Sequence record: ON528746 | Source: Shigella phage ESh36 | Direction: 5' to 3' (one strand) | Length of the DNA stretch: 64,000 nt | Shown: piece by piece, positions 4,825-11,005 of the stretch | How positions within the stretch are numbered: the first letter of the stretch is position 1 | Layout of the letters: each line of letters begins with the position of its first letter | The notes under the pieces: model-generated | The model's input: the letters and a program-made list of their open reading frames with translations, nothing else | Told to the model about the DNA's origin: nothing | The model's database searches: none | Made by a program: the position numbers and the translations under genes

Positions 4825-4848
4825 GGGACCTTTCGGTCCCTTTTTATT
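4825..4848. terminator. bidirectional terminator between gene 24 and rnlB
   Basis: GGGACC-TTTC-GGTCCC hairpin flanked by A-run upstream and T-run downstream, between convergent genes. Confidence 0.75.
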
Positions 4849-5852
4849 TAACTTACCAATTCAATCCAAGCCGGACGAAGTACATCTTGTACCATTTTAA
4901 CTAATTCCTTCTTAATCAAAGAAGGATTATCCGCTTGAGCTAAAGTAATACCTTCACGAGAAGTTTCTTCCAAAATATCTTGAACAGTTAGTCCCATCAC
5001 CTTTCCAAAATCCTTTGGACCAATTTCGCCAATTTTAGAAATAACGTTATTTACTCGATTCAGTGTAACGTAACAAGCTAAAATTCCAACCAATTTGTTA
5101 TCAGCTTCTGACAGTTCAACTTTAGCTTTAATAGGCTTATCAGACTTTTTCTTTTCACTAAATTTAGAGTTCTTGCATTTGATGGCTACACGATTGCGAT
5201 TAGGCAGCCAAGAAGGATAACAAGGTTTCAATACATATCCTTCAGCGGTAAATACTTCGCCTTTTGCTTCGGCATTCCAAACGCATTTATTTGCATCAAC
5301 TAATCCAGCGTGGTCTACCGTAAAATTATAATCTTGGACGACGGAATCTAAATCATTTGGCAATTTAATAAGTTCTTCAAATTTACCGCGACCTAAAAGT
5401 GGAGCCATTTTAAATTTAAATGTATTGCAGAATGATTCCATCATATAATCATCGACATAAGTTACATCACCACTTTCGGTAGTAACAATAATGTCAAATA
5501 CATAAAAATCTTTATCGCCATAATCAACATTCTTCTGAATGCCAGGTCCAGCGAATTCGCCAAAAACTTGATAAGTCACAACAGCTGAAGTTTCCATAAT
5601 TTCTTGGACAGCTTTAATAGAATCTTCGTAATTCTTTAAAATAATTTCATAACCGAAGAAATCTTCAGCAGGAAGAATTGGTCCAGTACGTTTAGCGCAA
5701 GTTACTTTATCACGCTCAATAATCAATGAGAAATTTGTGCCATGAATCTTTTCACGAGCTACCCATTCGCCGCCAGTCAATCCTAAACTGTAAAGTTTTT
5801 CAATGAATTTAGAATTGTAATGATTTTCAAGACTGCTATACTTTTTAAACAT
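4848..5852 (-). CDS. rnlB: RNA ligase 2 (Rnl2)
   Basis: 334 aa; nucleotidyltransferase lysine motif EKIHGTN (KxHGxN); T4 rnlB length and position after gene 24. Confidence 0.85.
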
Positions 5853-5861
5853 AATTAATCC

Positions 5862-6140
5862 TCAAAATGTAATTTCTAACCAATCACCATCACGCTGATC
5901 ACTATTAACTTTAAAGCTGAATCCTTCTTTTCTCAGCCAATCACCAATTTCTTCAGTAATCAATTTATCGCGAGCAGTACAATAATAACTAAAATATGTT
6001 TTACCTTGTTCAGCTGCTTTATTAGCAAGTTCCGAAAAATCTTTAATAAAACACTCTAGCTTAAACTGTTTACTTTTAAGTGCTTTTTCACGTAATTGAT
6101 TAGCAAAAGATTCATTTTCATAAAAATCATACTGTTCCAT
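5862..6140 (-). CDS. hypothetical protein (T4 24.2 position)
   Basis: 92 aa ORF, codirectional, tightly packed between rnlB and hoc. Confidence 0.5.
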   Translation of the reverse strand: MEQYDFYENESFANQLREKALKSKQFKLECFIKDFSELANKAAEQGKTYFSYYCTARDKLITEEIGDWLRKEGFSFKVNSDQRDGDWLEITF

Positions 6141-6342
6141 TTTTCACCTTTTTATTAATATGTCTTTTTCTATAGACAACTTTTTCTCGAGTCTCAAATT
6201 TATTCTTAGCAGTCATAGCTCGAGCCCATAATACAGCCACTTCTTTTGCCTGTAAATTCAATTCACGAGCAATTTCAATGAATGACTTTCCAGACTCATG
6301 AAGAGTAAACACCACAACCTCAGTTCTCATAATCAATCTCAT
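6127..6342 (-). CDS. hypothetical protein (T4 24.3 position)
   Basis: 71 aa ORF overlapping the downstream ORF start, as is typical for T4 early genes. Confidence 0.45.
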   Translation of the reverse strand: MRLIMRTEVVVFTLHESGKSFIEIARELNLQAKEVAVLWARAMTAKNKFETREKVVYRKRHINKKVKNGTV

Positions 6343-6410
6343 GTTATCGAGTTGGTGCCATTATATACATCATTTTCTGAGTGTGTTTTGTGTGCTTTCA
6401 AAATGAAGAA

Positions 6411-6426
6411 AGGGGCCGAAGCCCCT
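6411..6426 (-). terminator. terminator hairpin after hoc
   Basis: AGGGGC-TTCG-GCCCCT on minus strand followed by TTTCTTCATTTT. Confidence 0.65.
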
Positions 6427-6430
6427 AAGA

Positions 6431-8137
6431 TTATGGATAGGTATAGATGATACCAGTTTCTAAAGCAGTTTTATGAATGATGTATCCATTACGCGATTCT
6501 TGGACATCAACTTCTGGATAGTCTTTCATCATCTTCTGAAGAGTGTAACGATGCAGGTAGTATTTACTATCTGGATCTTCAGTTTTCCAATCTTTACCTT
6601 CTTCAGTCATTTTTTGGATTTCATCCATAACCCACCAACCGCACCAGATATAAGCTGAAGTACGATGTGGAAGAGGATGAACATAAGGCAATTCACCTTC
6701 TGGTTCTGGAGCAACTTTATCAGTTACCTGAACTTGGCCTTCTGCTGTGATAGTTTTGCTATCATAATCAGTAGCGGTAACAGTTGCAGTAACTTCAATA
6801 GTTTGACTTCCAATAGATGATGTATCAACGGTGTATACATTAGTTGACCCTTCTACAGGAGAAGAATCTTTCTTCCATGAGTATTCGATTTGTGCTTCTT
6901 CTGGAGCATCCGTAACATTAGCCGTAAATGTAGCCGAAGCATCTTGCTGAACGTTAATAGAAGGAGGAGTCAATGTAACCTGTGGATTCATTGTTTTCTT
7001 ATTAACTGTCAATGATACTTCATTAGAAGTAACTTCCTTTTCATTGTAATTTTCTGCAGTTACTTGCGCTACACACTTAACTGTTTTAGCTCCAACTGTG
7101 GTAGGAGTATAGTTAAATGTAGTAGTAGTTTCTCCATCGACCAGAGAACCGTCAACATACCACTGATACGTAGCAGACGCTCCTGGTGGCTGTGAAGCCA
7201 AGGCAGCAGTAAATTGAACTGGGGTTCCAATTACTCCGGCAGCAGGATTAGCAGGAGTTACGGCTAACGTAGTTGTCTGTGTCTTCTTATTAACTGTTAA
7301 TGATACTTCATTAGAAGTAACTGTTTTTGCGTCATAATCTGTTGCTGTTACTTGCGCTACGCATTTAATTCTTTTTACTCCACTTGTAGTTGGAGTATAG
7401 CTAAATGTAGCAGAAGTCGCTTCACCAATTTGAGAATCATCTACATACCACTGATACGTAGCAGATGCCCCATCAGGTTGAGAAGCTAAGGCAGCAGTAA
7501 ATTCAACGGCTGTTCCAATCACTCCAGCTGGAGGACTATCAGGAGTTACTGCCAAGGTAGTCGTCTGCGTCTTTTTATTAACAGTCAGTGACACTTCATT
7601 AGAAGTAACGCTCAATGTATCGTAATCAGTCGCGGTTACTTGAGCTATACACTTGATTTTTTTAACTCCGCTTGTGGCAGGAGTGTAATTGAATGTAGCA
7701 GAAGTTGCTTCGTCTACAGGAGAACCGTCAACGTGCCATTGATACGTAGCGTTTGCACCTGATGGCTGTGAAGCTAAGGCAGCGGTAAATTCAATTGGAG
7801 TTCCAATCACTCCAGCATCAGGGCTACCAGGAGTTACAGCTAAAGTAGTTGTTTGTGTCTTATTTTGAACTGTGATAGTTGTACTAATTTCTGCTGTTTC
7901 AGGTTCAGATTCTGCAACTTGATTGGTTGCAACTACTTTAATAGTCTTTTGACCGGCAGGTCCTTTTAGTACATAACTAAAAGTTGCTGACGTTTCTTCC
8001 TGTGGAGCGTCGTCTACAGTCCAAGCATATGTAATAGGTCCATCTCCAGTTTGACCACTGGGTGTAGCAGTAAACTGCTGAGTCTGATCTATAACTCCAG
8101 TAGGTGTTTTAGGAGTTATATCAACTGTAAAAGCCAT
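6431..8137 (-). CDS. hoc: Hoc outer capsid decoration protein with expanded Ig-like domain array
   Basis: 568 aa; N-terminus MAFTVDITPKTPTGVIDQTQQFTATPSGQTG and C-terminal capsid-binding region (...PYVHPLPHRTSAYIWCGWWVMDEIQK...) match T4 Hoc; three near-identical 96-aa Ig-like repeats in the middle. Confidence 0.9.
   Translation of the reverse strand: MAFTVDITPKTPTGVIDQTQQFTATPSGQTGDGPITYAWTVDDAPQEETSATFSYVLKGPAGQKTIKVVATNQVAESEPETAEISTTITVQNKTQTTTLAVTPGSPDAGVIGTPIEFTAALASQPSGANATYQWHVDGSPVDEATSATFNYTPATSGVKKIKCIAQVTATDYDTLSVTSNEVSLTVNKKTQTTTLAVTPDSPPAGVIGTAVEFTAALASQPDGASATYQWYVDDSQIGEATSATFSYTPTTSGVKRIKCVAQVTATDYDAKTVTSNEVSLTVNKKTQTTTLAVTPANPAAGVIGTPVQFTAALASQPPGASATYQWYVDGSLVDGETTTTFNYTPTTVGAKTVKCVAQVTAENYNEKEVTSNEVSLTVNKKTMNPQVTLTPPSINVQQDASATFTANVTDAPEEAQIEYSWKKDSSPVEGSTNVYTVDTSSIGSQTIEVTATVTATDYDSKTITAEGQVQVTDKVAPEPEGELPYVHPLPHRTSAYIWCGWWVMDEIQKMTEEGKDWKTEDPDSKYYLHRYTLQKMMKDYPEVDVQESRNGYIIHKTALETGIIYTYP
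6999..7862 (-). repeat. 3 x 288 bp in-frame tandem repeat inside hoc (Ig-like domain units)
   Basis: Repeat units start near 6999, 7287 and 7575, each beginning ttattaac(t/a)g...cttcattagaagtaac; roughly 85-90% identical. Confidence 0.85.
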
Positions 8138-8146
8138 AAGTTATCC

Positions 8147-8827
8147 TTATTTTAATGTTACGAAAGAAGAATTACGTGTTTCACGAATTAGAACTGATCC
8201 GTCGCGATTAATGTAATAAATTAAGCTAAATAAAGTTTGGTGTGCAGACGCATGTTCAAAACTAGTTGGGTGAGATTTCCAATCTGGAGTTTCAGCAATC
8301 CATTGGTAAATCCACCAAGGAACAGTGCAGAATCCTGGATTTTTTCCAATCAGCTGAAGATTTGGGCTAAAGTTTTCCGGAAGAGTAAATACGGACGGCT
8401 TTTCAGATTCAATAATCTCAGCTACAGCCTGCTCGAATTTTTCTTCAACAAAAGGAGTATCTTCAATCAAAACATCGGTATTTTCAGGAATTTTATCCGT
8501 TTCTACTACTTCAATTTTAATGTCAGATTTAACCGGAGAATCAATCAGAAGTGCTGCCTCTGGATTGACTTCTTCATCGTCATATTTTAATCCGTCTGCA
8601 GCATCAGCAGCATCAATTAAGTCTTTAATAGATAACCCATCAGTCTCTGGCATAGGTTCACTAGCGAGCTTCTGGAGGGCTTCTTCAATATCATTAACGA
8701 TATTATCAAAAGATTTATTCTTTTTGACTTTTATACCAAACTGTTCAGCATATTCAGCTAATTTAGCTTTAGCTTCTTTATTATCATCAAGAGCCTTCAG
8801 CTCTGCAATATAATCTTTATCTATCAT
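8147..8827 (-). CDS. inh: acidic head protein, probable Inh (inhibitor of prohead protease)
   Basis: 226 aa acidic ORF directly downstream of hoc, matching T4 inh position; assignment is positional. Confidence 0.5.
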   Translation of the reverse strand: MIDKDYIAELKALDDNKEAKAKLAEYAEQFGIKVKKNKSFDNIVNDIEEALQKLASEPMPETDGLSIKDLIDAADAADGLKYDDEEVNPEAALLIDSPVKSDIKIEVVETDKIPENTDVLIEDTPFVEEKFEQAVAEIIESEKPSVFTLPENFSPNLQLIGKNPGFCTVPWWIYQWIAETPDWKSHPTSFEHASAHQTLFSLIYYINRDGSVLIRETRNSSFVTLK

Positions 8828-8840
8828 AATATTTCCTCAG

Positions 8841-8848
8841 TATAAATA
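8841..8848 (+). promoter_or_regulatory. late-promoter-like TATAAATA upstream of segE
   Basis: Exact TATAAATA 28 nt before the segE ATG in the inh/segE divergent region. Confidence 0.4.
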
Positions 8849-8876
8849 TAGATATATTTATTACTCGGAAAATAGT

Positions 8877-9494
8877 ATGTACCACTTTGTATATGAAACA
8901 ACAAATCTAATAAATGGTAAAAAGTATATAGGAAAGCACTCTACTGACGACCTGAATGATGGCTACCTTGGTTCCGGTAAGGCAATTCAGCAGGCTATAA
9001 AGAAATATGGTGAAAACAATTTCTCTAGAAAAATACTAAAAGAGTTTAAAACTTCCGAAGAAGCGTACATGTATGAAGAAGAAATTATAACTCCTGAACT
9101 GATAAAAAGCAAAAATTATTATAATATGAAACCTGGTGGAATTGGTGGAATTGTTATGACTACAGAGGTTATAGCAAAGATGAAAGAATCTTCCGCTAAG
9201 AGATTTGAAAACTCACCGGGCACGGTATTAGGTACAACTTGTTACACTAATGGAACTAAAAATATTTTTATTAAGCCTGGAGAACTTGTTCCAGAAGGAT
9301 TTGTAAAAGGGATGGTTCATCCTAATAGAAAGTCCAGAAAAGGATGTAAAGTCAAACCGACTACAACAGGAACTTTTTGGGTCAATAATGGCGCAATAAA
9401 TAAATTAATACAACCAGACGGTATTATTCCCGACGGATTTATTAAAGGTCGTCTCATGAAAAGAGATTCTAAAGGCAAATTTAGTAAGGCATAA
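8877..9494 (+). CDS. segE: GIY-YIG homing endonuclease, SegE-like
   Basis: 205 aa; N-terminal GIY-YIG module (HFVYETTNLINGKKYIGKH...YLGSGKAIQQAIKKYG...RKIL); C-terminal repeated NG..N.L..P.G.IP.GF.KG DNA-binding-like modules; between inh and uvsW as in T4. Confidence 0.8.
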   Translation: MYHFVYETTNLINGKKYIGKHSTDDLNDGYLGSGKAIQQAIKKYGENNFSRKILKEFKTSEEAYMYEEEIITPELIKSKNYYNMKPGGIGGIVMTTEVIAKMKESSAKRFENSPGTVLGTTCYTNGTKNIFIKPGELVPEGFVKGMVHPNRKSRKGCKVKPTTTGTFWVNNGAINKLIQPDGIIPDGFIKGRLMKRDSKGKFSKA

Positions 9495-9496
9495 TT

Positions 9497-11005
9497 ATGG
9501 ATATTAAAGTACATTTTCACGACTTCAGTCATGTACGCATCGATTGTGAAGAGAGCACGTTCCACGAATTAAGAGATTTCTTTTCGTTTGAGGCCGATGG
9601 ATATAGGTTTAATCCTCGCTTCAGATATGGCAACTGGGATGGACGAATCCGTCTTTTAGATTATAATCGCCTTCTTCCATTCGGCTTAGTTGGGCAAATT
9701 AAAAAGTTCTGTAATAACTTTGGCTATAAAGCCTGGATTGACCCGCAAATTAACGAAAAAGAAGAATTATCAAGAAAAGATTTTGATGAATGGCTTTCTA
9801 AATTAGAAATCTATTCAGGAAATAAAAGAATTGAACCACACTGGTATCAAAAAGATGCAGTGTTCGAAGGATTAGTTAATCGTCGTAGAATTCTTAATCT
9901 TCCAACATCTGCAGGTAAATCTTTAATTCAAGCTTTGCTTGCTCGATATTATTTGGAAAATTATGAAGGTAAAATTCTTATCATTGTTCCAACAACTGCT
10001 CTGACAACTCAGATGGCTGATGACTTTGTTGACTATCGTTTATTCAGTCATGCAATGATAAAGAAAATTGGCGGTGGAGCATCAAAAGATGATAAATATA
10101 AAAATGATGCACCAGTCGTTGTTGGTACATGGCAAACTGTAGTAAAACAACCAAAAGAATGGTTCTCACAGTTTGGAATGATGATGAATGATGAATGCCA
10201 TCTTGCTACAGGAAAAAGTATTTCATCTATCATATCAGGTTTAAATAACTGCATGTTTAAATTTGGTCTATCTGGTTCATTACGTGATGGCAAAGCCAAT
10301 ATCATGCAGTATGTTGGAATGTTTGGTGAAATATTTAAGCCAGTAACGACCTCTAAATTAATGGAAGATGGACAAGTAACTGAGCTAAAAATTAATAGTA
10401 TTTTTCTTCGCTATCCCGATGAGTTCACTACTAAATTAAAGGGAAAAACTTACCAAGAAGAAATAAAAATTATTACTGGGCTCAGTAAAAGAAATAAATG
10501 GATCGCTAAATTAGCTATTAAGCTTGCACAAAAAGATGAAAACGCTTTTGTCATGTTTAAACATGTGTCACATGGTAAAGCTATTTTCGATTTAATTAAA
10601 AATGAATACGATAAAGTTTATTACGTATCAGGGGAAGTTGATACCGAAACCCGCAATATAATGAAAACCTTAGCTGAAAATGGCAAAGGAATAATTATAG
10701 TAGCTAGTTATGGTGTATTTTCTACTGGTATTTCAGTTAAAAATCTGCACCACGTTGTTTTAGCACACGGTGTTAAATCAAAAATCATTGTATTACAAAC
10801 AATCGGTCGTGTATTACGTAAGCATGGTTCTAAGACAATCGCAACAGTCTGGGACCTCATAGATGACGCGGGCGTAGTTTCTAAATCAAAAACATCTTCT
10901 AAAAAATACTCGCATTTAAACTATCTTTTAAAACATGGACTTGATCGTATTCAGCGTTATGCTGATGAAAAGTTTAATTATGTGATGAAAGAGGTTAAAC
11001 TTTGA
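9497..11005 (+). CDS. uvsW: UvsW DNA/RNA helicase
   Basis: 502 aa; Walker A (LNLPTSAGKS) and DECH box (MMMNDECHLATGK); SF2 helicase; T4 UvsW length. Confidence 0.9.
   Translation: MDIKVHFHDFSHVRIDCEESTFHELRDFFSFEADGYRFNPRFRYGNWDGRIRLLDYNRLLPFGLVGQIKKFCNNFGYKAWIDPQINEKEELSRKDFDEWLSKLEIYSGNKRIEPHWYQKDAVFEGLVNRRRILNLPTSAGKSLIQALLARYYLENYEGKILIIVPTTALTTQMADDFVDYRLFSHAMIKKIGGGASKDDKYKNDAPVVVGTWQTVVKQPKEWFSQFGMMMNDECHLATGKSISSIISGLNNCMFKFGLSGSLRDGKANIMQYVGMFGEIFKPVTTSKLMEDGQVTELKINSIFLRYPDEFTTKLKGKTYQEEIKIITGLSKRNKWIAKLAIKLAQKDENAFVMFKHVSHGKAIFDLIKNEYDKVYYVSGEVDTETRNIMKTLAENGKGIIIVASYGVFSTGISVKNLHHVVLAHGVKSKIIVLQTIGRVLRKHGSKTIATVWDLIDDAGVVSKSKTSSKKYSHLNYLLKHGLDRIQRYADEKFNYVMKEVKL

Follow-up and report, generated by a model that had tools for sequence, protein, structure and literature searches.

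Introduction

Hoc is a head decoration protein of the outer capsid and is highly immunogenic. In phage T4, it forms a linear fibre of ~180 Å, which is attached via its C-terminal domain to the centre of each gp23* hexamer (PMC10385173). Homologues of this protein carry from one to 10 immunoglobulin (Ig)-like domains (PMC10385173). Here we describe the hoc gene of Shigella phage ESh36 [ON528746], situated on the minus strand at positions 6431–8137 of a 64,000-nucleotide stretch of DNA (hereafter, the window; all positions refer to it). The gene encodes 568 aa plus the stop codon and is very probably a functional hoc allele composed of Ig-like domain 1 (D1), three diverged paralogues of domain 2 (D2), domain 3 (D3) and the C-terminal domain. 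The three D2 paralogues are old cassettes of types A, C and D, taken from an ordered set A-B-C-D that segregates in the genus Tequatrovirus.

The T4 protein (376 aa; PDB 5VF3, 8T1X; Fokine et al., 2023, PMC10385173) is encoded by the same gene at the same locus and has the same linear Ig-string design. D1, D3 and the capsid-binding C-terminal domain of the window protein are collinear with those of T4 and nearly identical to them, whereas domain 2, single in T4, is present three times (A, C, D), which adds 192 aa. Another related form, known from GenBank annotations, is the 664-aa Hoc with six Ig-like domains from phages FJ1, slur03, slur08, slur14 and Sfk20. It contains the same cassette family in the same order, and the window units are orthologous to its units 1, 3 and 4 (86–99% DNA identity), but the window protein lacks cassette B and has one domain fewer.

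Hoc of Serratia phage Muldoon (up to 10 Ig-like domains) and that of PNJ-9, which is devoid of domain 3, likewise combine a conserved C-terminus for capsid binding with Ig-like domains that vary in number (PMC10385173, PMC11853027). These are cross-genus or single cases, whereas the variation described here concerns alleles of a single genus, which form a series by the copy number of one domain. In PNJ-9 Hoc, domain 2 is implicated in binding of the mucin MUC2, and residues S183, L184 and T185 of this domain, which bind MUC2 fucose, are reported to be required for it (PMC11853027). A more distant parallel is provided by the BACON domain repeats of crAss-like phages where the number of carbohydrate-binding/Ig-like domains is also reported to vary via whole-domain duplication and recombination (PMC6949934); since the fold family, the protein and the phage group are different, this is an analogy and not membership. 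Variation in the number of Hoc Ig-like domains is thus already published, and the exact window protein is present in GenBank under generic names. In the literature searched for D2 copy-number or ordered cassette polymorphism in Tequatrovirus we found no description of it, only the general statement on 1–10 Ig-like domains.

Results

Identity and domain architecture of the window Hoc

A phmmer search aligned the window protein with T4 Hoc (PDB 5VF3_Z, 8T1X) at E=9.4e-249 in two collinear stretches: residues 1–190 correspond to T4 residues 1–190, and residues 285–568 to T4 residues 93–376. It follows from this split alignment that the additional 192 residues are two added copies of T4 domain 2. 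The gene order rnlB-24.2-24.3-hoc-inh is that of the T4 annotation. At its C-terminus the protein has a non-Ig domain for capsid binding, the homologue of residues ~281–376 in T4 Hoc, preceded by an N-terminal linear string of Ig-like domains (revealed by Pfam, AlphaFold2 and Foldseek), and its gene lies between inh and 24.3/24.2/rnlB. By all features of Hoc that can be tested, the window protein belongs to this family.

Tandem Repeats Finder revealed an array at 6992–7873 with a period of 288 bp, 3.1 copies, 77% matches, 0% indels and a score of 1016, and a gap-free repeat search gave three copies spaced by 288 and 288 nt. The repeat is in frame, contains no indels and is far above chance expectation. 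The order of domains on the minus strand is as follows. D1 (aa 1–93; 7859–8137) aligns with T4 Hoc residues 1–93 and is predicted to form a beta-sandwich (predicted local distance difference test score, pLDDT, ~85–93). It is followed by D2 unit 1 (aa 94–189; 7571–7858), unit 2 (aa 190–285; 7283–7570) and unit 3 (aa 286–381; 6995–7282). Next comes D3 (aa 382–475; 6713–6994), which aligns with T4 residues ~190–283, has Pfam Ig_3 and I-set matches at residues 385–469 and is modelled as a confident beta-sandwich. The domain at the C-terminus that binds the capsid (aa 476–568 plus the stop codon; 6431–6712) is nearly identical to T4 residues 284–376.

Each of the units contains the same NEVSLT motif: aa 180–185, including S183-L184-T185 (7583–7600), aa 276–281 (7295–7312) and aa 372–377 (7007–7024), all on the minus strand. 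The motif is invariant across the three units.

Pfam matches in the whole protein comprise PKD, Ig_2, Ig_3 and I-set. In the AlphaFold2 model, built with 70 homologues (mean pLDDT 82), residues 1–475 are folded into five beta-sandwiches with pLDDT of ~85–94, and the three units hardly differ in their strings of secondary structure. A Foldseek comparison of the whole model with the PDB retrieved Ig-like strings (complement C3, DSCAM, CEA, ICAM-1) with low template modelling scores, which are explained by the model being a flexible rod; this comparison indicates the fold class only, and membership in the Hoc family was settled by the phmmer sequence search. Alignment and model thus agree on five Ig-like domains against three in T4, with domain 2 present three times.

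A first-pass annotation, made from the letters and open reading frames (ORFs) of the window, had already recognized the gene as hoc and proposed five Ig-like domains instead of three, encoded by three tandem in-frame 288-bp units with starts near 6999, 7287 and 7575. All this is borne out by the searches and the structure prediction, the unit boundaries being the same as ours with a shift of 4 nt, and the amino acid motifs that it quoted for the units are present. It was also right in placing the units after domain 1 and before a different domain, domain 3, with the C-terminal domain. The minus-strand orientation of the gene was not mentioned in it.

Age and selection of the domain 2 units

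The same annotation had estimated the identity of the three modules at 85–90% and attributed them to recent tandem duplication. Neither statement held. Identity among the units is 81%, 74% and 75% at the protein level and 76%, 78% and 79% at the DNA level; exact runs shared by two units reach 24 nt at most, and sub-segments of the unit pairs do not exceed 88% identity. Near-identical units with long exact stretches, as in a young, concertedly evolving repeat, were not observed (76–79%; 24 nt). Whole-unit steps in copy number among close relatives, as in a young contingency-type repeat, do occur.

The number of synonymous substitutions per site (dS) between the window units is 0.61–1.41, with a ratio of nonsynonymous to synonymous rates (dN/dS) of 0.09–0.27. 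The dS between the window and T4 is considerably lower in the flanking domains of hoc (0.32 in D1, 0.36 in D3 and 0.16 in the C-terminal domain, where dN is as low as 0.009). The units thus predate the divergence of these phages at the hoc locus, and all three are maintained by purifying selection.

These values make it very improbable that domain 2 was triplicated recently and in situ in this lineage, with a young and highly recombinogenic array as the result. The exact 288-nt period without indels, the preserved frame and the strong conservation of the VTSNEVSLTVNKK ends of the units would agree with such an event, but the units are too dissimilar at the DNA level, share exact runs of 24 nt at most, differ from each other by a dS greater than that between the window and T4, and are each far more similar to an orthologue from other phages (86–100% identity) than to one another.

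As another source of differences between the units, a diversity-generating retroelement or other programmed hypervariation was considered. The differences affect all codon positions, mostly the third ones, which fits ordinary divergence.

Length forms of Hoc in Tequatrovirus

Comparison of Hoc lengths among related phages, suggested in the first-pass annotation, revealed a series of 286, 376, 472, 568 and 664 aa, to which the window protein belongs with its 568 aa. The 376-aa form is found in T4, the 472-aa form in ESh33, phiD1 and teqskov, and the 664-aa form, with four D2 units, in FJ1, slur03 (also slur08 and slur14) and Sfk20. The top 120 clusters of the protein database had lengths of 376, 472 and 568 aa, with single clusters at 439, 468 and 570 aa.

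Among the tblastn matches listed, 14 records contained the 568-aa form (one of them with 570 aa) and seven contained the 664-aa form. Shigella phages ESh16 and ESh34 encode a 568-aa protein identical to that of the window. Proteins of the same or nearly the same length with 88.7–98.1% identity were found by tblastn in YUEEL01, TOPO13, ECML-123-2, OMNI12, ESh26, T4_ev151, EC101, KMB26, UGKSEcP1, UGKSEcP2 (the 570-aa variant) and A6-6, and further 568-aa clusters came from independent metagenome assemblies.

This distribution leaves a negligible chance that mis-assembly of the repeats has inflated their copy number, the possibility by which the first-pass annotation itself could have been overturned. 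Assembly errors are well known to arise at tandem repeats, and the closest GenBank records, ESh16 and ESh34, are flagged UNVERIFIED. Against this, the units differ at ~22% of positions and share exact runs of no more than 24 nt, so that ordinary reads place each unit unambiguously; the 568-aa architecture recurs in the 14 listed records from independent laboratories and countries (e.g., YUEEL01 from Korea) and in separate metagenome assemblies; and the reading frame is intact, with units under purifying selection.

Matching records numbered 682, and about 470 records fit the hoc locus at genus-level similarity. In a sample of 41 rows, assigned to forms according to matched-span length, 17 corresponded to the three-Ig form, 22 to the four-Ig form and two to the five-Ig form; the four-Ig assignment of phiD1 and teqskov is backed by their annotation (a 1419-nt hoc gene in each). 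Rough frequencies in Tequatrovirus, subject to redundancy and sampling bias, are ~40% for three-Ig, ~50% for four-Ig, ~3% for five-Ig and ~1% for six-Ig forms. The five-domain Hoc is therefore not the common state of the lineage, as the first-pass annotation had allowed it might prove to be; but the three-Ig form of T4 is not the norm of the genus either, the four-Ig form being at least as common in sequence databases.

Some records contained shortened or interrupted genes. Salmonella phage vB_SenS_Jbel (L011, 433–1293) encodes the 286-aa Hoc, in which D1 was deleted by the fusion MTFTVDITP|NSPSAGVIG. The first strand of D1 is thereby linked to that of D2; the deletion occurred between homologous strands of different Ig domains. 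In FriedrichMiescher (L008, 633–2052), the 1420-nt hoc gene is interrupted by a frameshift within its second unit, and the annotation names the pieces 'Hoc part 1' and 'Hoc part 2'. Two Hoc coding sequences are also listed in vB_Eco_EL, NHEP10, ECML-134, G29, YwIITB1 and vb_GEC_SH_GT. Either sequencing errors or repeated pseudogenisation of this gene, which is non-essential, could account for such split records.

Ordered cassettes of domain 2

To designate the unit types, we used the letters A-B-C-D according to their order in the 664-aa four-unit Hoc. In the DNA identity matrix, orthologous units are 86–100% identical and paralogous units 74–85% identical. Unit 1 of the window is assigned to type A: it is 86–96% identical to the first unit of FJ1, slur03, Sfk20, ESh33 and YUEEL01 and 100% identical to that of ESh16, against 74–80% for paralogues and only 76–78% for the two other units of the window. 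Unit 2 is assigned to type C, with 87–97% identity to the third unit of four-unit phages (76–84% to paralogues); unit 2 in ESh33 and in YUEEL01 is 100% identical to it. Unit 3, of type D, is 96–100% identical to its orthologues (96–99% to the fourth unit of FJ1, slur03 and Sfk20) and 75–84% identical to paralogues. The window array thus reads as A-C-D.

Other phages contain different subsets of the same units. Arrays of two units are A-C (ESh33, phiD1), A-D (P0014) and A-B (P0017; the units of FriedrichMiescher were also read as A-B by eye), and three-unit alleles occur as A-B-C, A-B-D and A-C-D. Hybrid units were found as well: the array of P0018 is (A/B)-(C/D), that of teqskov is A-(B/C), with a B/C hybrid clear at the DNA level, and vB_Eco_Geo has a single A/D hybrid unit. 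Among other single-unit alleles, fPS-65 (P0120) contains a pure type D unit, while the unit of T4 is closest to type C, i.e., to unit 2 of the window (90% DNA identity, dS 0.25), with a type-A-like tail. A typing of the 376-aa forms as 'A/B/C' mosaics by protein thirds was dropped as a guide to the direction of evolution, and only the cases of fPS-65, Geo and teqskov are used here. Tequatrovirus phages are thus polymorphic in copy number, with one to four cassettes, or in-register hybrids of these, per phage.

Two further observations concern individual units. The last 70 nt of unit B of FJ1 are 94–96% identical to unit D, which indicates local conversion between paralogues. In P0042 (472 aa, Logan assembly), the second D2 unit is only 54–60% identical to types A–D and is possibly a fifth, divergent type imported from a more distant phage.

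Mosaicism of hoc and the genome backbone

The hoc region (positions 6000–8900) has its best match in ESh16 (99.5%), whereas the best matches of the neighbouring 25 kb (positions 11001–36000) are ACG-C40, ESh30 and PYPS2T (96–97%); both three-Ig and four-Ig Hoc are represented among these hits. In the phage collection searched, none of the records matched the window throughout. The source phage is thus a mosaic absent from this collection, and the architecture of Hoc does not track the genome backbone, hoc behaving as an independent mosaic module.

It should be added that a GenBank record of a 32-kb 'Staphylococcus phage SAJK-IND' [MG010123.1] matches the hoc/inh region with 93.5% identity over the whole 2.9-kb query; this record is probably mislabelled or contaminated.

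Origin of the array

Alongside ancient in situ duplication with later losses of units, it can be supposed that the array was assembled by unequal recombination between diverged single-unit alleles of co-infecting phages. We consider this origin possible but rather unlikely. Distinct single-unit types do exist (the C-like unit of T4, the pure D unit of fPS-65), the divergent second unit of P0042 suggests import from a more distant phage, and the phages nearest to the hoc allele are not those nearest to the backbone. On the other hand, the order of A before B before C before D is kept in nearly all typed multi-unit alleles; the exceptions are six two-unit clusters typed as 'C-B', in which the first unit is an A/C mosaic. 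Many hybrids consist of the 5' part of an upstream type and the 3' part of a downstream type, as expected from deletion of units in an existing array, and only microhomology would be available for joining the end of D2 to the D1/D2 boundary of another allele.

Neighbourhood of hoc

Downstream of hoc in the direction of its transcription are 24.3 (6127–6342, minus strand), 24.2 (5862–6140) and rnlB (4848–5852), and upstream of it is inh (8147–8827), all recognized as ORFs of the window. A Shine-Dalgarno-like sequence AAGGA was read at 8144–8148 on the minus strand, 6 nt upstream of the hoc ATG, where it overlaps the stop codon of inh. A search of the minus strand upstream of hoc for the late-promoter TATAAATA revealed none between inh and hoc. 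Probably, hoc is co-transcribed with inh.

The small ORF 24.3 is polymorphic in length: its product is 71 aa in the window against 56 aa (171 nt) in T4, and the gene is 204 nt in FJ1 and phiD1. On the other side, an ORF for a GIY-YIG-type homing endonuclease, annotated in relatives as segE or 'homing endonuclease', is located at 8877–9494 on the plus strand, between inh and uvsW. An endonuclease ORF after inh is present in ESh16, FJ1 and FriedrichMiescher and absent from YUEEL01 and ESh33, where the helicase gene directly follows inh. The mosaic hoc module is adjoined by a presence/absence polymorphism of a homing endonuclease.

Discussion

By homology with T4, the C-terminal domain would anchor one Hoc at the centre of each hexamer of the major capsid protein gp23*, giving 155 molecules per capsid, and the protein would be dispensable for assembly. 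In front of this conserved anchor, five Ig-like (PKD-like) beta-sandwich domains are predicted to stand in a row. The two extra domains would add ~8–9 nm, so that the fibre may reach ~26–27 nm instead of ~18 nm in T4, and the surface of domain 2, including the NEVSLT motif, would be displayed three times per fibre. An increase in glycan reach and avidity is a plausible functional consequence, and the most likely one; a role of NEVSLT in mucin binding is suggested here by analogy with PNJ-9 Hoc.

Unequal and in-register homologous recombination, both among units and among co-infecting phages, is the most likely way in which the number of units changes. The suggestion of the first-pass annotation that the repeats form a recombination-prone tract able to expand or contract thus agrees with what is seen across the population (exact 288-nt steps, hybrid units), but fits poorly within this genome. 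Exact runs of up to 24 nt are a poor substrate, so exchange with orthologous units of other phages appears to be the likelier route.

Several points weigh against interpreting the gene as a functional allele built from old segregating cassettes. The presence of its product in the virion is a prediction from the sequence. The C-terminal domain was modelled in isolation with low AlphaFold2 confidence, a result uninformative either way. The census was drawn from a top-ranked list and an evenly spaced sample with 41 informative rows in a redundant and biased database, and in the typing of single-unit (376-aa) forms by protein thirds the first third has too few diagnostic sites. Evidence on the direction of change, by collapse from four units or by build-up from single-unit alleles, exists on both sides: the conserved order of units and the hybrids with an upstream 5' part and a downstream 3' part favour collapse, whereas the different single-unit alleles and the divergent unit of P0042 favour build-up. 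Finally, the unit-variable positions were not significantly enriched in loops (18 of 45 loop positions against 12 of 51 strand positions, p=0.12), which gives no support here for diversification similar to that of complementarity-determining regions or for distinct ligand specificities of the cassettes. Despite these points, we consider the combination of old A, C and D cassettes in a functional hoc gene very probable.

One could go further and propose that cassettes A–D constitute a modular system of the population, in which in-register recombination tunes the length and glycan valency of Hoc while the types are maintained for their ligand preference and for niche adaptation; we regard this broader idea as doubtful.

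In most respects, the window gene is unremarkable, being one allele of hoc, a well-known gene that is not essential. Its relatives are of wider interest, since Hoc serves as a model for phage adherence to mucus and as a display scaffold in T4 vaccine and nanoparticle platforms. The data correct the common assumption that the three-Ig form of T4 is the norm in the genus. Natural alleles with two, three, four, five and six Ig-like domains on an otherwise nearly identical protein represent a ready-made series, which could be used to test how the length and valency of the fibre affect adherence to mucin, aggregation, immunogenicity and display capacity.

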